A stretch of DNA of 64,000 nt. Origin: Escherichia coli (GTDB lineage: Bacteria; Pseudomonadota; Gammaproteobacteria; Enterobacterales; Enterobacteriaceae). The notes under the pieces are model-generated. The model made no database searches. It was not told where the DNA came from and saw only the letters and a list, made by a program, of their open reading frames with translations. The stretch lies in assembly GCF_024223415.1 (NCBI RefSeq), contig NZ_CP100501.1; one strand, 5' to 3'. Numbering within the stretch: position 1 is the stretch's first letter; each line of letters opens with the position of its first letter. Position numbers and translations under genes: made by a program. This document shows, in pieces, positions 10,100 through 17,234 of this stretch.

Positions 10100-11097
10100 C
10101 AGTTCAGCCCCATTTTTCTCAGCTGCTCGCCCACCTGCTCCGCGCCGTAAAGCGTGCGAATGGTCGGATTCATCGCCTGACCGTCCATGACCACGATATG
10201 GCCTTTTTTCACCGCCTCCAGCTGGCTGACGGCGGGATCGCTTTTGAGGAATTTGATCTTCTCCTCGGCTTTATCCAGCGCCCAGCGGTTACGATCCAGG
10301 CTGGCGACCACGATCACATCCGGGTTGGCGGCAATAATGCTCTCCCAGCTCACCGTGGGCCACTCGGTTTCGGAGGTAATCGCATTATGTCCGCCCAGCA
10401 CGCTGGCGATAAATCCGGAGGCGCTGTTTTTGCCGCCGACATAGGCATCGGCCGAAGGTGAGGCGCTGGAGAACCAGAAGACGAAGGAGAGATCCTTTTT
10501 GCTTTTACCAAACTCCTGGCGCAGGTCGGCTTCACGTTTTTTGAAATCGGCAATCAGCGCCTGACCACGATCTTCGACGTTGAAAATGCGGGAAAAATCG
10601 CTAATTTCCTGATACAGCCAGGTCATATCCCACAGCTTTTGCCGGCTGCCGTACATATCGCCGGTGGCCTTTTTGGTGGCGCACACCCCCGGTGAGACGT
10701 AGCTGTTCACGCCGACGGTGGCGAGATCTTCACGCCTGGCGACTTTGCTTTCCGGCCCCAGCAGCAGCGGCAACTGGGCGGGAACGAAATCAGGATTTTG
10801 CGCCAGCACCGATTCCAGGCTCGGAATTTCCACCGTCAAGGTTTTAATCTTCGCGTTTTGCTCAGCCAGCTGCGGTAAAACGCTGGTCGGCCAGAAGGCG
10901 CTGGCGACCACCTGCTTTTGCAGCCCGAGCAGCAGCAGAATTTCGACCGTATTTTGCCCCAGCGCGACCACGCGCTCCGGCGGCCGGGTGAAGGTCTCCT
11001 GATAGCCGCAGTTTTCAATCGTCAGGGGGTAGGTTGTTGCCAGCGCGGAACTGACGGCGGTGAACATCAAGCCTAACGCGCAAAGGACCTTCTTCAT
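10099..11097 (-). CDS. eitA: Periplasmic substrate-binding protein of an iron/siderophore-type ABC transporter (EitA-like)
   Basis: 332-aa ORF with N-terminal signal peptide MKKVLCALGLMFTAVSSALA; first gene of the operon. Confidence 0.85.
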   Translation of the reverse strand: MKKVLCALGLMFTAVSSALATTYPLTIENCGYQETFTRPPERVVALGQNTVEILLLLGLQKQVVASAFWPTSVLPQLAEQNAKIKTLTVEIPSLESVLAQNPDFVPAQLPLLLGPESKVARREDLATVGVNSYVSPGVCATKKATGDMYGSRQKLWDMTWLYQEISDFSRIFNVEDRGQALIADFKKREADLRQEFGKSKKDLSFVFWFSSASPSADAYVGGKNSASGFIASVLGGHNAITSETEWPTVSWESIIAANPDVIVVASLDRNRWALDKAEEKIKFLKSDPAVSQLEAVKKGHIVVMDGQAMNPTIRTLYGAEQVGEQLRKMGLN

Positions 11098-11212
11098 TAA
11101 ACGCTATCCTTGTAAACAGGCGAGTGGATGACCAGCAAATGGGAGTAATGCAAATGAAACTCATTATTATCGCGGGGTTTTATACAATGCCATATTTACA
11201 GTGTCAATGTGT

Positions 11213-11420
11213 TCTTGCCCCCTTATTTCCAGACAGGGGTTGTATCTTAAGTTAATGTTACCCGCTGACGTCGATATTCTCGCGGAGAGCGATAACCCAA
11301 CGCACTGTGCGGATGGTTTTCATTGTAATGTTCGATCGCCACTGCAAGATTATGCAATGCCGTTCTTACATTCGGTTTCGGCATGAACGCGATGTAGTCT
11401 TCCTTGGGGTCCGCTTGGAA
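11213..11420 (-). mobile_element. Relic of an IS2-like right end (IR plus 3' end of OrfB), diverged
   Basis: Aligns by eye with the IS2 IRR/OrfB 3' end at about 75 percent identity; no intact ORF. Confidence 0.4.
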
Positions 11421-11451
11421 AACGGAAAATATCCCACGCTAAGACTATTTT

Positions 11452-12042
11452 CTATACAGTAACAGTTTGCTGTTTCGCTCTAACTCTCAGAATTGTTTGC
11501 CGTGTGGTTCGGAATTCCCTGGCAATAGCACTTATACTTGCTCCAGACTTAATGTGTTCGAGTACCTTCTGTTTTTGTTCTTCATTTAATACCGGTGGGC
11601 GACCAAAACGTTTTCCTGCATCCCGTGCTCTTGCTATCCCTGAATAAGTTCGTTCAAGTAAAAGATCTCGTTCAAATTCAGCGACCGCTGAAATCACTTG
11701 CATTGTCATTTTTCCTGCCGGACTGGTCAGATCAACACCACCTAATGCCAGGCAATGTACCCTGATGCCAGATTCGGTCAGTTGCTCCACTGTTTTCCTG
11801 ATATCCATTGCATTACGACCGAGGCGATCCAGTTTTGTGACTATCAATACATCGCCACTTTCCAGACGATCAAGCAACCGGTTAAAACCTGGACGTTCAC
11901 TGGCTGCTACTGATCCACTAATTTGTTCTTCGATTATTCGTTGGGGTCTGACGTTAAAACCCGCGCTTTCGATTTCCCGACGTTGATTTTCGGTCGTCTG
12001 TTCCAGAGTGGAAACCCGACAATAGGCAAAAATTCGAGACAT
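11452..12042 (-). CDS. Serine recombinase (resolvase/invertase family)
   Basis: 196-aa ORF, N-terminus [15 protein letters not shown] with catalytic Ser, C-terminal HTH. Confidence 0.9.
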
Positions 12043-12085
12043 AGTGAGATCTTCTGTACGAAATGGGTGTACATATTATAATGCA

Positions 12086-12157
12086 TGTCCGAAAGTAATT
12101 TCGCTGACTTTCGGATATATCTGTTTAACAATGTCCGAAACCGGTCGATTTCGGACA
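12086..12157. promoter_or_regulatory. res-like site: paired inverted repeats upstream of the resolvase gene
   Basis: TCCGAAAGT-N10-ACTTTCGGA (12088..12115) and perfect TGTCCGAAA-N8-TTTCGGACA (12132..12157), 45-115 bp from the resolvase start. Confidence 0.5.
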
Positions 12158-12542
12158 CCAAAACCACTGTTGTCCCGCCATTCTGGCGATTCCTGAAAGC
12201 CCTTTGGCTAAAAAATAGTCTTAACATGGTTTATTTTCCGAATTCCAAACTGACCCCGCTAACGCGGAGATACGTCCCGACTTCGGGTAAACCCTCGTCG
12301 GGACCACTCCGACCGCGCACAGAAGCTCTCTCATGGCTGAAAGCGGGTATGGCTTAGCAGGGCTGGGGATGGGTAAGGTGAAATCTATCAATCAGTACCG
12401 GCTTACGCCGGGCTTCGGCGGTTTTACTCCTGTGCCATATGCAACAACGGAGTGCCGCCTTACATGCGCTGACGCGCATTATTTGCCTTGTTCCGTCTGA
12501 AACTAATCACTATGATTAAATATGATTAACAACTAATCGGGT

Positions 12543-12827
12543 ATGCAAATGAAAAACAATACCGCACAGGCAACAAAAGTCATTACCGCGCATGTGCCAT
12601 TACCAATGGCTGATAAAGTCGACCAGATGGCCGCCAGACTGGAACGCTCCCGGGGCTGGGTTATCAAACAGGCGCTTTCTGCATGGCTTGCCCAGGAGGA
12701 GGAGCGTAATCGCCTGACGCTGGAAGCCCTGGACGATGTGAAATCCGGACAGGTTATCGACCATCAGGCTGTACAGGCCTGGGCGGACAGCCTCAGTACT
12801 GACAATCCGTTACCGGTGCCACGCTGA
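12543..12827 (+). CDS. Ribbon-helix-helix antitoxin (ParD/CopG-like)
   Basis: 94-aa ORF overlapping the downstream toxin by ATGA. Confidence 0.75.
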   Translation: MQMKNNTAQATKVITAHVPLPMADKVDQMAARLERSRGWVIKQALSAWLAQEEERNRLTLEALDDVKSGQVIDHQAVQAWADSLSTDNPLPVPR

Positions 12828-13102
12828 TGGAACTGAAGTGGACCAGTAAGGCGCTTTCTGATTTGGCGCGGTTATATGATTTTCTGGTGCTGGCCAGTAA
12901 ACCTGCGGCCACCAGAACGGTGCAGTCCCTGACACAGGCACCGGTCATTCTGTTAACTCATCCACGTATGGGAGAACAGTTGTTTCAGTTTGAACCCAGG
13001 GAGGTCAGACGGATTTTTGCTGGCGAGTACGAAATCCGTTACGAACTTAATGGCCAGACTATTTATGTATTGCGCCTGTGGCACACACGAGAAAACAGGT
13101 AG
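12827..13102 (+). CDS. RelE/ParE-family toxin
   Basis: 91-aa ORF, C-terminal ...YVLRLWHTRENR typical of RelE/ParE. Confidence 0.8.
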   Translation: MELKWTSKALSDLARLYDFLVLASKPAATRTVQSLTQAPVILLTHPRMGEQLFQFEPREVRRIFAGEYEIRYELNGQTIYVLRLWHTRENR

Positions 13103-13207
13103 ATTGTGTGTGGGGACAACTTAACATAGCCTGCAGATATTAATTCTGGAACATTATTATCAGGCCAGATATTTTTCATTCCATTAAATAATCTTGTAGG
13201 AGATAAA

Positions 13208-13447
13208 ATGAATTACGATGAAATAACGAAAATTACCGCTGAACGTATTAGCGACTACATGACCGAAGCAGTTAATACAGACTCTATAGCCGTTGCGGAA
13301 ATGTTTCATAACGCTGCATGGGGAGTGCGAACATTGTGGTTTGAACTCGTCACAAAAATAGATATGGATATACATAAAAAGAACAGGTATGCGAGTTATG
13401 ATCTTAGAAGGAAAATCGAAATACAGCATGAAGAGTTTCACGTATAG
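13208..13447 (+). CDS. Hypothetical protein (AT-rich island)
   Basis: 79-aa ORF with plausible RBS; no recognisable motif. Confidence 0.3.
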
Positions 13448-13609
13448 GAAATTGAAAAACTAAGCGATACCACTGTCCGCGTCTTATGCCTCGTGCGGTA
13501 AGCTGTTTTTCACATCACGCCGGTGTTTTTTCTCTCTGCGTGGTCGGTTTTTATACTGCGGATGGGGTTTTTTATCCTTTCCCCGGATTGCTGACACACT
13601 TACCCTGTA

Positions 13610-14902
13610 TCAGGCCGGCACATACCTCAGCAGACTGATATCCCGCGCGTTTTTCTTCAGCCCTGATACATTCAGCCCCGCAAGGGCCCGGCGGTATACC
13701 ATCCGGCCGCCACACAGCACGCATTCGAACGGGTCACGACTCAGGAACTGTTTCACCATTTGTGCATAGCACACTTTCGCCACCGGTTCCGGTTTATCCA
13801 TCCCCAGAGCTCGGTACACCTGCGGCAGCTTCTCTCCACACCCCCGGTTGGCAAGGAACCCGAAGTACCTCACCATCTTAAAAAACTTCTCCGGGATGTG
13901 CTGTTTCATCCTCGCGACCAGCTCACGCTGCGTCAGCGTTTCCGTCGCTGTCTCTCCCGTTTTGTGGTCCAGGTAACGGAAGCTCAGGCTCGCCCCTCCG
14001 TTGTAATGTGCCAGCCGGGAAGCCGCTATTGGTGGCTTCTTCAGATAACGACCCAGGTAGCGTGCCGTATTCCGCCCGCCGGCCGTCTTCTTCGACATGT
14101 ACACATGCCAGTATTTTCCGCCGGCTTTCAGCACCAGGCTTCTCCACTGTGATTCCGTCGTGATATGTGACAACGACTCCGGCATCGCCATCCCCTCTGA
14201 CCACGCTTTCAGAAGCAACTGCCGTATATTCCACATCCACCGCGAACGCATTGCGTCTTTCAGGAAGCTCAGCTTTTTCCACTGACCGTGCTTATTCAGC
14301 CCCCCGCAGGTTACTGACACATGTACATGCGGATGCCAGTTGAGACGACGGCCATATGTGTGGATGGCGCAGAAGATACCGGGTTCCAGCCCCCGTTTTC
14401 GGGCGGCATACAGCAGCCAACGGTTGCTTTCGAACACCGGCCACAGCGTGTCCGGCAGGGTGAAGACCAGGTGTACCCAGTCGCAGTCAGGAAGACGATT
14501 CAGCTGTGTCGCTGTCCACAGGTCTGTGGCCTTTTTTCCGCAGGACGGGCAGGCACGGCTGCCACATGAGTTAGTGACGTATCTGACGTGGGGACAGTCA
14601 GGTTTATCGCAGTTGTATTCCTTCACGCCCAGTATCCGCGTGCCGCAGGCCAGCATTTTGGTGACAGCCTCAACCTCGATATCGCGCAGACCGCCCGCAT
14701 CCAGGAAGGACGTCCAGCACTGGTTGGCTGTGAACAGGCGTTTCAGCGGACGGGGCTGAAAATCACCACCACTTCGGGTCATCCATCCTGCACGCTCCAT
14801 CTGATAATGTTCTGACAGGTAAAAATAATATCCCGCATGATTTGTGTGCTCATGATTTCTGATAATATCAGATATGGTTTTATCATCAATGATGAAAATC
14901 AT
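13610..14902 (-). CDS. IS91-family (HUH rolling-circle) transposase
   Basis: Cys-rich zinc-binding N-terminus, HxH (HPHVHV) and paired-Tyr region; true start probably internal (MERAGWMTRSGG...). Confidence 0.85.
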   Translation of the reverse strand: MIFIIDDKTISDIIRNHEHTNHAGYYFYLSEHYQMERAGWMTRSGGDFQPRPLKRLFTANQCWTSFLDAGGLRDIEVEAVTKMLACGTRILGVKEYNCDKPDCPHVRYVTNSCGSRACPSCGKKATDLWTATQLNRLPDCDWVHLVFTLPDTLWPVFESNRWLLYAARKRGLEPGIFCAIHTYGRRLNWHPHVHVSVTCGGLNKHGQWKKLSFLKDAMRSRWMWNIRQLLLKAWSEGMAMPESLSHITTESQWRSLVLKAGGKYWHVYMSKKTAGGRNTARYLGRYLKKPPIAASRLAHYNGGASLSFRYLDHKTGETATETLTQRELVARMKQHIPEKFFKMVRYFGFLANRGCGEKLPQVYRALGMDKPEPVAKVCYAQMVKQFLSRDPFECVLCGGRMVYRRALAGLNVSGLKKNARDISLLRYVPA

Positions 14903-15139: not shown

Positions 15140-17234
15140 ATGGACATTGAAATACGCCACTGCAATAACATCGTACGAGCACATATCACCCTCACTGCCG
15201 ATAAACTGAACATTAAGTTTGCGCCAAATGGTACTGGAAAAAGTACGCTGTCACGGGCCATAAGCTGTGCGGCGCGGGACGACATTCAGGGACTACAGGC
15301 ACTGATGCCCTTCCGGCTGCGCGGAGAAAACCCCGATAGCACCGGGCCCATTGTCATCGGTGCTGACGGGATTGGGGACGTGATGTGCTTCAACGAGGAG
15401 TACGTCAGTCAGTTTACGTTCCAACCGGACGAGCTCATCAGTGACAGCTTTAATATTCTTATCCGCAATCAAGCCCATGCGGAAAGAGAGCGTGAAATAG
15501 AAGAAATGACGCAAAAGATCCGGGCTGTTTTCACGGATCACACTGAGCTGAACTCTCTGATAGACCATCTACAGGAACTCAGTAATGCTTTCAAATCAAC
15601 CAGTTCCGGGATTTCACGTTCTTCAACCGGCATGAGAGGTCTGTCAGGCGGAAATAAAATACACCACATTCCGGCTGGTCTTGAGAACTATCAACCCTAC
15701 ATCCGCAGTGAACGCCGCGTGGAATGGATTGACTGGCAGACAAAGGGACTCGAGTTTTCGCCCCTTTCGGATGGCTGCTGTCCGTTCTGTACCGGTGATA
15801 TCACGGGAAAGGAAGCACAAATTCGCCAAGTCAGAGAGGAATACGATAAATCCACCATTAAAAATGACGGAGAGCGCCAGAGAACGCCTTCTGGCCATTA
15901 CTATGCTTCAGAACGGTCCGGAAGCCGAACATATCGAGTACCTAGTGGCGTTGAAACGCCAGACCGATACGCTGACAGAGAAACTCACTGCGCTGAGAGG
16001 CCTGAATGTTTTCAGCCTGCAGGAACAGCAGAACGTTCGGGAGGTGCTCACTGCCAGGTTGATTGACCTGCAGTTCTTCCCTGATCTGCAATCCGAACTC
16101 ATGCAGGGGATCACCGACAGACTGAACGCGGCCCTTATGGACCTGATAAACCTTGCCGGACCGCTGCAGGGAAAAATTAACCGGCACCGGGACAGCATGA
16201 TCCGGCTGATCGCACAGCACAAAACAAACATCAATAATTTCCTCACTTATGCAGGCTATAAATACAGGGTGGATATAGCCGGCGAGGGAGAGCAGAGAAA
16301 ACTCAGGCTACGACACATAGATTTTGACGGGTACGTCAGCGGCGGTAGCCAGCATCTCAGCTATGGAGAACGGAACGCCTTTGCGATTGTGTTATTCATG
16401 TATGAATGCCTGTCAAAAAACCCGGGACTGATTATCCTTGATGATCCCATATCTTCTTTTGATAAAAACAAGAAGTTTGCCATTCTTGAAATGCTGTTCA
16501 GACGTGCAAGTGGTGAATGCCTGAAGAACCGGACTGTACTTATGCTGACGCATGACGTGGAGCCTGTGATTGACACGCTGAAGTCAGTCAGAAGGTTGTT
16601 CAGTAATCAGGTGACCGCCTCCTGCCTGCGCCTGTCTGCTGGAGTCATAGAAGAATTACCTGTTAACGACGGCGATATCATGACATTCATGCAGATCTGC
16701 AAATCCATCACCGCGTCAGCAGACTGTGAGGAGATCATTAAGCTCATCTATCTTCGTCGCTACTTTGAAATCGTTGACGAACGTGGTGATGCTTATCAGC
16801 TTCTATCCAATCTATTCCATCGACGCGTCGCCCCGCTGGATTATCGCGAGCCTGCCGCTGCGGGCTCGGGCTATCCCAAAATGGCTCCTGAGAAAATTCA
16901 GCAGGCCTTGCGGGATATCCGGGAGTATGTGGACAGTTTTGATTACCCGCGACTTCAGGCTCTCGTCAGCAGCCCAGATGAAATAAAAAACCTGTACCGT
17001 CGCTGTCGTAACGGCTATGAAAAACTGCAGGTATTCCGTTTACTGGAACTGGATCAGGACCATCCGGTAATACGAAAATTCGTTAACGAAACGTACCACA
17101 TTGAAAATGAGTTCATCTGTCAACTAGATCCGTCCAGATTCGATCTCATCCCGGAGTACGTGATTATGGAATGTGACAAGTTCATCGCCCTGCCACCGGC
17201 AGCAAACCAGAGCTCGGTTGCCCGTATCGCTTGA
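15140..17234 (+). pseudogene. Rad50/RloC-like ABC ATPase with CxxC hook-like motif and about 240-aa C-terminal domain of unknown function; split by a frameshift in an A5 run
   Basis: Walker A FAPNGTGKST (N-terminal ORF 15140..16066); CPFC motif mid-insert; ABC signature LSYGERNAF, Walker B LIILDD, H-loop LMLTHD (C-terminal ORF, other frame); frames rejoin if one A is removed at 15860..15864. Confidence 0.65.

Follow-up and report, generated by a model that had tools for sequence, protein, structure and literature searches.

The region from 11452 to 13102 of a 64,000-nucleotide stretch of Escherichia coli DNA (NZ_CP100501.1; the whole stretch is henceforth the window) holds a serine resolvase gene on the minus strand and, diverging from it on the plus strand, a toxin-antitoxin (TA) pair comprising a ribbon-helix-helix (RHH) antitoxin and a ParE-family toxin. 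A preliminary description had taken these genes and the repeats between them for a Tn3-family resolution site (res) with adjacent TA cargo. Our analysis shows that the locus is a mosaic of known kinds of elements, namely the Tn3 family, the TIME-RES type and the ParE/RHH type of TA system, and is well explained without invoking a new system. Sequence comparisons make it probable that positions 11406-12257 represent a non-autonomous TIME-RES-type relic of a Tn3-family transposon which has lost its transposase, that this relic was assembled through exchange between two res sites, and that the TA pair belongs to the plasmid backbone. Hence, the part of the earlier description that concerned a transposon-derived resolvase and res is borne out (97-99.9% identity to intact elements), whereas the TA pair lies outside the right terminal inverted repeat (IR) and appears to be backbone rather than cargo.

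The window from 11200 to 13200 is 99.9% identical to the avian-pathogenic E. coli (APEC) virulence plasmid pAPEC-O1-ColBM (NC_009837.1, IncFIB/FIC), which served as the reference for whole-plasmid searches for IRs and res site I. That record places the three genes between eit, an operon for iron transport, and a gene for an IS91-family transposase, and gives them no annotation beyond "recombinase family protein", "ribbon-helix-helix domain-containing protein" and "RelE/ParE family toxin". Plasmid and genes are thus known already; no annotation marks the IR-bounded element or the hybrid site I or indicates where the TA pair came from, and we found no published description of these or of the relic beside eitABCD. 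What looks like a neat "resolvase + res + TA" module on APEC ColV/ColBM plasmids is a mosaic of three unrelated histories, which cautions against equating gene neighbourhoods with modules.

The 852-bp unit and its relatives

The resolvase gene, tnpR (11452-12042, minus strand), is an intact open reading frame (ORF) encoding a 196-residue protein with matches to the Pfam models Resolvase (1.1e-38) and HTH_7 (3.3e-9), in keeping with the preliminary description. The protein displays the organization of the small serine recombinases, with an N-terminal catalytic domain containing the nucleophilic serine, a DRLGR arginine cluster and a C-terminal helix-turn-helix (HTH) domain, and its catalytic motifs, including ERT, are conserved and align with those of Gin and gamma-delta. 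Its matches among sequences in the PDB are Gin (7e-30), gamma-delta (7e-25) and Tn3 (3e-24).

Eight bases beyond the stop codon of tnpR lies a 38-bp terminal IR of the Tn3 family (GGGGTCCGCTTGGAAAACGGAAAATATCCCACGCTAAG; 11406-11443, plus strand), ISSba14-like in type, which is unique in the window and identical to both IRs of the intact transposons at loci L008, L009, L011 and L016. Transposon homology starts exactly at the first G of this repeat (11406), and the four copies show four different left flanks. In the sister plasmid CP032263, an IS5075 copy is inserted at about position 22 of the repeat. According to PMC8269217 and a work listed among the references of PMC11187229, IS5075 and IS4321 specifically target the terminal IRs of Tn21-like Tn3-family transposons. 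Given that the intact relatives share the repeat, that homology begins at its first G, and that IS5075 targets it in CP032263, the left IR is best regarded as a genuine transposon end. More generally, the left IR of several sister plasmids holds IS5075 (L002 1729-3058), or IS4321 in others, so that this unannotated repeat represents a recurrent insertion sequence (IS) landing site in ColV/ColBM plasmids.

The organization of the complete element is apparent from E. coli plasmids CP012500 and AP026094 and E. albertii plasmid CP117648 (among loci L008, L009 and L011), and from the intact copy at L016; a relative in Shewanella, whose IRs are identical, is annotated as the ISfinder element ISSba14. 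In the three plasmids, the same tnpR and an intact Tn3-family tnpA of 2,985 bp diverge from each other with 160 bp between them. The CP012500 element spans 3,818 bp in the order IR-tnpR-res-tnpA-IR, with a perfect inverted 38-bp repeat at its far end, and the copies in E. albertii and AP026094 are flanked by 5-bp target duplications (TATAT in L009 and TTTAT in L011). The left 740 bp of the window element, reaching from the IR as far as the middle of site I, is 97-99.9% identical at the nucleotide level to L008, L009 and L011, while its TnpR shares 86.7% of residues (81.6% of nucleotides) with that of ISSba14. Because the same tnpR-res arrangement adjoins a Tn3-family tnpA divergently in intact, IR-bounded elements, these comparisons support the identification of the recombinase as a Tn3-family transposon resolvase and of the repeats as its res subsites. 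ISSba14 (ISfinder, Tn3 family; Shewanella baltica) and its E. coli and E. albertii relatives thus share with the window copy identical 38-bp IRs, the same res subsites and the divergent tnpR-res-tnpA plan, from which the window copy differs in lacking tnpA and the cognate right IR and in having the right arm of site I, and all that follows it, from another element. Tn5403, which papers describe only as a cryptic Tn3-family element, was considered as a name for the intact transposon and could not be verified; ISSba14 is the only name supported by annotation.

The opposite end of the window element is formed by a diverged right terminal IR (12220-12257, minus strand; reverse complement GGGGTCAGTTTGGAATTCGGAAAATAAACCATGTTAAG), which matches the left IR in inverted orientation at 30 of 38 positions. 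This copy escaped a search for partner IRs that allowed up to three mismatches, and was recovered through its relatives and through self-BLAST, in which 11406-11454 aligns in inverted orientation with 12257-12209 (49 bp, 81.6% identity, E = 1e-5). Homologous IRs terminate the elements at L018, L007 and L006, and plasmid backbone homology sets in at about 12250-12258, which coincides with or overlaps the right IR's outer end. With 38-bp repeats of the GGGG...ACGCTAAG type at both ends, positions 11406-12257 constitute an 852-bp unit made up of an IR, tnpR, res, about 60 bp and the second IR, which includes the cointegrate-resolution module (tnpR + res). The search for Tn3-family IRs that the preliminary description had proposed therefore yields a pair (11406-11443 and 12220-12257); a tnpA remnant, which it had also proposed to look for, is absent from the window in tblastn with the ISSba14 TnpA. 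Likewise, no Tn3-family transposase is annotated in positions 1-102003 and 140000-174241 of the pAPEC-O1-ColBM record, the intervening stretch being inside the window, and there is no further IR or site I of the ISSba14-like family on the rest of that plasmid. The unit has no 5-bp target duplication, its flanks being tcctt and gctaa. Lacking both a DDE TnpA of about 1,000 residues and a 5-bp duplication, it differs from an autonomous Tn3-family transposon.

The remaining 112 bp of the unit (12146-12257), comprising half of site I, about 60 bp and the IR, appear to be the right end of a Tn3-derived miniature element. BLAST rows for this segment are bounded at 12146 and at 12257/12261, and it is about 93% identical to the right end of IR-to-IR miniature elements of about 285 bp in OY754854 (L018, a ColE-type plasmid) and in a ColV plasmid (L007). 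IS101 of pSC101 offers a parallel, as it carries a resolution site usable by the gamma-delta and Tn3 resolvases (PMC4133298), and the donor of 12146-12257 similarly corresponds to the end of an IR-bounded element of about 285 bp with res-like half-sites. In contrast to the likeness in plan, there is no sequence relationship to IS101 or the Pseudomonas TIMEs, and the enterobacterial mini-elements are known from sequence.

These miniature elements (L018 1325-1611; L007 2830-3105) are unannotated, TIME- or IS101-like, contain res-like half-sites and show no evident target duplication; the former resides in a ColE-type colicin plasmid and the latter adjoins the cvi gene. A related remnant occurs directly 3' of pemK in many IncFII plasmids (L006 3161-3275), where a degenerate site I is followed by about 75 bp and an outward-facing Tn3-type IR. 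This pemK-downstream relic is about 80% identical to window 12137-12248 (82.1%, or 78.7% over 94 bp in another comparison) and represents another instance of a TA system abutting a res site I remnant. In pCoo (L022 1500-2385), a second Tn3-type IR directly adjoins a truncated res with its right-end relic and precedes a gene for a 213-residue recombinase; the same recombinase family is also found at L003 9640-10281, beside an N-terminal tnpA fragment.

The closest known counterpart of the 852-bp unit is TIME-RES of Pseudomonas sp. (Szuplewska et al. 2014, PMC4133298), a hybrid of the Tn5563 tnpR-res with a TIME end of about 100 bp, with IRs that differ at 8 positions, which was experimentally shown to transpose and was termed a "portable RES system" (PMC4133298). 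Like the window unit, TIME-RES is a non-autonomous element of the Tn3 family with IRs of about 38-40 bp bearing 8 mismatches, and in both the core tnpR and res are near-identical to those of a complete transposon while the other end of about 100 bp, including the IR, is TIME-derived. The window unit accordingly combines all the structural hallmarks of this type: both IRs, no transposase, a transposon-derived tnpR-res and a miniature-element end. The differences lie in the parent (ISSba14-like rather than Tn5563), in the size of the resolvase (196 as against 309 residues) and of the element (852 as against 1,186 bp), and in the breakpoint, which is mapped to the centre of res site I here. Furthermore, mobility was shown for TIME-RES, whereas the window element is known from sequence, lacks a target duplication and has no other insertion site at high identity.

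The likeness to TIME-RES raises the alternative that IR-tnpR-res-IR transposed into this site as a unit, being a non-autonomous mobile element (a portable resolution cassette) served by a transposase acting in trans. Both IRs are present, TIME-RES with the same architecture transposes at about 8e-5 with a 5-bp target-site duplication (PMC4133298), and a second, diverged tnpA-less element of 850 bp with the same layout (87% identity) is found in a Providencia plasmid. Nevertheless, there is no 5-bp duplication around either the window unit or the Providencia copy (tcaaa / tattt). Moreover, the junction of res, right end and backbone is present in 99 plasmids (those covering at least 80% of query 12000-12320), and in 99 of 99 it joins the hybrid to the same backbone block, none having a different right flank. 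The two flanks of the unit, an IS relic beside eit on the left and a replicon block on the right, also come from unrelated contexts. We therefore consider movement of the unit as a cassette unlikely, and regard it as a relic formed in place. Its recognition extends the TIME-RES class, known from Pseudomonas, to Enterobacterales (E. coli and Providencia), and flags the unannotated 38-bp IRs and mini-elements as hot spots for recombination and IS5075 insertion in widespread plasmids.

The res subsites and the hybrid site I

Exactly 500 bp (12043-12542) separate the two divergent genes, and the two inverted-repeat subsites reported earlier, including the perfect palindrome, are found in this gap at 12132-12157 and 12086-12117. 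The earlier account had missed both 38-bp IRs, a third conserved subsite at 12055-12080, and the fact that res covers only about 115 bp of the gap. The palindrome (inverted repeat I1), TGTCCGAAA-N8-TTTCGGACA, corresponds to res site I, the crossover site, of 26 bp (12+2+12); read as 12-nucleotide arms separated by 2 nucleotides it is 92% complementary. The second dyad (I2), TGTCCGAAA-N14-TTTCGGATA, forms a 34-bp site II-like subsite when read as 12-nucleotide arms with one mismatch and a 10-nucleotide spacer (12085-12118; 92% complementary). The tnpR-proximal, site III-like subsite, TGTACGAAA..TGTAC..ATTATA, is defined by columns that are invariant across seven elements, and a half-site with one mismatch begins at 12055. 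By analogy with Tn3, this subsite probably overlaps the tnpR promoter, and its invariant ATTATA fits a -10 element.

The clustering of these repeats exceeds chance. All three exact copies of the 9-mer TGTCCGAAA in the 64-kb window fall in the res region, and with up to one mismatch there are five copies within 103 bp as against 10 in the remaining window, counting both strands. In an alignment of the tnpR-tnpA intergenic region from seven elements (71-100% identical), conservation is concentrated in the 12055-12080 block and the half-sites of both dyads; in the five non-redundant, diverged lineages used for the statistics, 33 of 45 half-site columns are invariant in comparison to 28 of 67 other res columns (Fisher p = 0.001). 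By position, and by analogy with Tn3 and gamma-delta, the three subsites would represent sites III, II and I of the resolvase res.

The res site II of gamma-delta is 34 bp, the same length as the site II-like subsite of the window. Gamma-delta and Tn3 also resemble the window element in encoding a small serine recombinase with a C-terminal HTH and in possessing several dyad subsites between divergent tnpR and tnpA genes. The points of difference from gamma-delta are site I, which is 26 bp with a GT centre here as against 28 bp with an AT centre, the distance between the centres of sites I and II (about 43 as against about 53 bp), the tnpR-proximal subsite, which is not clearly a dyad, and the distant relationship of the proteins (E ~1e-24).

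Homology to the intact transposons stops at 12147/12148, which is the centre of site I, with the first difference at 12148, and homology to the TIME-like ends starts at 12146. At this centre the intact copies have TGTCCGAAACCGGTCGTTTTCGGTCA and then the tnpA leader, whereas the window has TGTCCGAAACCGGTCGATTTCGGACA and then unrelated DNA. Since transposon homology ends at the dyad centre and the miniature-element end begins there, the palindrome appears to be a hybrid res site I, a chimaera whose left arm derives from an ISSba14-like transposon and whose right arm derives from a TIME-like miniature element. Judging from these breakpoints, the hybrid site bears the signature of a resolvase-mediated exchange at site I, an event documented between Tn3-family members (PMC7157771), and a resolvase crossover scar can thereby be placed within a few bases of the site I centre.

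Several observations weigh against this interpretation. The centre of site I is a non-palindromic GT, as opposed to TA in the TIME-like relatives at L018 and L007, so that direct exchange with exactly these partners would create a mismatch. The related site in pCoo carries a CCGGT centre, and the true right-hand parent probably resembled this relic; neither that parent nor the reciprocal recombinant was found. Because the uninterrupted target also contains CTGAC and is similar to the right IR in its outermost 8 bp, the right junction can be placed only to within a few bases. In addition, the third subsite (12055-12080) has no clear dyad symmetry, and the Gin invertase, as the best structural-sequence match, scores slightly above the gamma-delta and Tn3 resolvases. 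Finally, it is from family membership, by analogy, that the locus is predicted to have resolvase activity, to resolve dimers, and to encode a toxic ParE and an operator-binding RHH protein.

The affinity to Gin, together with a top NCBIfam match to the Mpi invertase family that falls far under its cutoff, could be taken to mean that the recombinase is a DNA invertase, or else a native plasmid multimer-resolution enzyme unrelated to transposition with the repeats as its own sites; the enzyme is indeed plausibly a dimer resolvase for the plasmid today. Against this stand the Tn3-family IRs flanking the gene and its 97-99% identity to the tnpR of intact transposons possessing tnpA and target-site duplications. 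Furthermore, there is only a single site I, one in the 64-kb window and none elsewhere on pAPEC-O1-ColBM, which precludes an invertible segment, and the multi-subsite res architecture is unlike paired simple sites. The preliminary description had itself named a multimer-resolution or invertase gene unrelated to transposons as the outcome that would undo it; given the IRs and the intact tnpA-bearing relatives, such an origin appears highly improbable, and the enzyme is most readily interpreted as a Tn3-family resolvase.

Origin of the ParE/RHH pair

The TA pair reported in the preliminary description is confirmed by domain matches: the antitoxin is a 94-residue CopG-type RHH protein (12543-12827, plus strand; Pfam RHH_1, 1.2e-10) and the toxin a 91-residue ParE-family protein (12827-13102, plus strand; Pfam ParE_toxin, 1.8e-16). 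The antitoxin gene comes first and the start of the toxin gene overlaps its stop by one nucleotide, which is the layout of type II ParE/RHH systems. Both partners find their nearest structures in the same ParE/CopA-type complexes (antitoxin, PDB: 7ETR_A and 6XRW_B; toxin, PDB: 6XRW_A and 7ETR_C), with which they share the coupled, overlapping genes; the similarity is weak (E ~0.005), and the window ParE is known from sequence. NCBIfam offers no informative family for the pair. Upstream of the antitoxin gene is a plus-strand promoter-like and operator-like region (12497-12542), with a promoter-like match at 12497-12526 and two pairs of direct repeats, D2 and D3: two copies of TATGATTAA at 12511-12529 and two of AACTAATC at 12501-12508 and 12531-12538. 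The promoter-like site overlaps both repeat pairs; site and repeats are identical in pSE11-1 and lie 340-400 bp from site I.

The right IR ends at 12257 and the antitoxin gene starts at 12543. Between them lies a block of about 230 bp (12258-12490), which plasmid BLAST searches identify as a conserved non-coding segment whose usual place in IncFII and I-complex replicons is about 600 bp past repA. At least 5,000 plasmids carry it (90-99% identity), and it follows repA at L004 (1700-1930) and L005 (3001-3230). Window 12258-13102 has a colinear counterpart in pSE11-1 (IncI-gamma/K1) that starts about 600 bp downstream of repA. Among the three IncK/I-gamma and IncFII plasmids compared in this respect (L004, L012 and L013), the order repA, block, RHH, ParE and a homologue of the next gene, orf79, recurs in an IncK2/Z plasmid and a pO157-like IncFII plasmid (L012, L013). 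The gene orf79 (13208-13447, plus strand; homologues WP_0011050xx) is a hypothetical gene following the TA pair in this replicon-adjacent backbone, with no Pfam or NCBIfam match. Given its position beyond the right IR, its colinearity with DNA downstream of repA and its absence from intact transposon copies, these comparisons place the pair in the plasmid backbone and not in the transposon cargo. Moreover, the IncFII repA of pAPEC-O1-ColBM itself precedes a different TA system (Phd/RelE), which implies that the block and the RHH/ParE pair seen here are an orphan fragment of a second replicon.

Under the opposing proposition, a Tn3-family fragment carries the pair as integral cargo beside site I, arranged as '<tnpR A> T> tnpA>', and promoters in res may regulate it. 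Its appeal is that the resolvase and res are truly transposon-derived, and that the gene order and orientation conform to the published layout of divergent tnpR/tnpA transposons with TA modules beside res site I (Lima-Mendez et al. 2020, PMC7157771). As in those Tn3-borne systems, the window pair, which is of RHH/ParE type, is found on the side of res where site I lies and is oriented away from tnpR, and exchange at site I is the assembly mechanism that both would share (PMC7157771). However, in this case an outward-facing IR (12220-12257) and the 230-bp replicon block separate res from the pair, which belongs to backbone DNA, is 385 bp away from site I and has a promoter-like site and operator-like repeats of its own. 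In the intact elements L008, L009, L011 and L016, tnpA follows directly after res and there is no TA gene, while the pair, its upstream block and the downstream orf79 are replicon-adjacent backbone in IncK, I-gamma and IncFII plasmids. The pair is found in 1,450 plasmids (at least 90% nucleotide identity), only 19 of which have the resolvase and TA genes together without interruption. Thus, it neither lies within the boundaries of a transposon adjoining site I nor is co-inherited with the transposon, as an integrated module would be, and its status as cargo is largely refuted and very unlikely. On balance, a backbone origin accounts better for the pair.

The replicon block has several G+C-rich hairpins, with modest DNA folding scores (z = -1.9 and -2.7), and possibly acts as a putative priming signal. 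In a comparison with primase G-site and Frpo-type signals, there was no similarity to phage (G4) and no strings were shared with the published Frpo, ssiD and ssiE; an Rfam scan of 10500-14000 at E <= 1 recovered no RNA family. A second copy of the block is present in the leading region of pAPEC-O1-ColBM (L019 6150-6373). At L003 (6162-7636), an IS110-family element interrupts the block at the equivalent of window position ~12360 in 108 plasmids. The 3' end of its transposase gene and the downstream non-coding DNA (L003 6303-6449) are 86.6% identical to block positions 74-222, and the element thus carries an uninterrupted paralogue of its own target next to the place where IS1111-type elements encode the guide (seek/bridge) RNA. 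The slot directly after the block varies by plasmid, being occupied by RHH/ParE, YacAB, RelE/HTH or Phd/RelE systems (L004 1981-2540; L009 1949-2496; L005 3332-3930; L020 6489-7024), and looks like an exchange hot spot for addiction modules.

Assembly of the locus and its flanks

The above comparisons point to a probable three-step assembly. An ISSba14-like transposon would first have inserted into an ISEc48-like IS3-family element beside the eit operon, and a miniature Tn3-derived element at the upstream edge of the replicon-adjacent block in a segment of IncK/I-gamma or IncFII type. The resolvase would then have recombined the two site I sequences, replacing tnpA with the end of the miniature element. 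In the process, tnpA and repA would have been deleted or separated and two DNA contexts fused, placing the backbone RHH/ParE module with its own promoter no more than 385 bp from res.

RHH antitoxins repress their own operon, and here autorepression would be exerted at the TATGATTAA repeats. With one res per plasmid monomer, TnpR would be expected to bind the half-sites of the TGTCCGAAA type in the single res copy, repress its own promoter, and, in plasmid dimers, synapse the two directly repeated res copies to yield monomers. ParE-family toxins poison gyrase (PMC7157771), and the toxin might accordingly kill or arrest plasmid-free segregants independently of TnpR. It is therefore likely that the single-copy res and resolvase are able to resolve plasmid dimers beside an independent addiction module, the two stability functions being neighbours by history that would stabilize the plasmid separately rather than as one module. 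In such a scenario the single res/tnpR may aid plasmid dimer resolution and the ParE/RHH pair may aid persistence.

A different view of the same events is that the locus represents an intermediate in the acquisition of TA modules beside res site I by Tn3-family transposons. Res-bearing miniature elements would insert beside plasmid TA cassettes (a relic of the same end also occurs 3' of pemK in thousands of IncFII plasmids), and resolvase exchange with a resident transposon would stitch the backbone TA beside res. If so, one more exchange or decay of the IR would turn the TA system into internal cargo. We regard this as a rather unlikely, if suggestive, extension of the reading favoured here, that of a relic abutting backbone DNA.

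To the left of the 852-bp unit is an IS3-family end relic of the IS2 group (11213-11405, minus strand; ORF 11247-11384, Pfam rve_3), which appears to have been truncated by the transposon insertion. It had previously been delimited as an IS2-like end relic at 11213-11420; while the assignment to a relative of IS2 holds, the relic ends at 11405 and is closest to ISEc48, being 97.5% identical to a region annotated as an ISEc48-family transposase and about 71-73% identical to IS2. On the other side, an IS91-family transposase gene (13610-14902) directly follows orf79 and forms the right-hand limit of the replicon-derived segment. At L007, orf79 is inverted beside the mini-element, which points to further rearrangements at the orf79/IS91 junction. 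Further downstream, an AAA-family ATPase gene (15140-17234) is represented by two overlapping ORFs in different frames (15140-16066 and 15681-17234) as against a single 2,139-bp coding sequence in NC_009837.1, suggesting that the window copy of this gene carries a frameshift.

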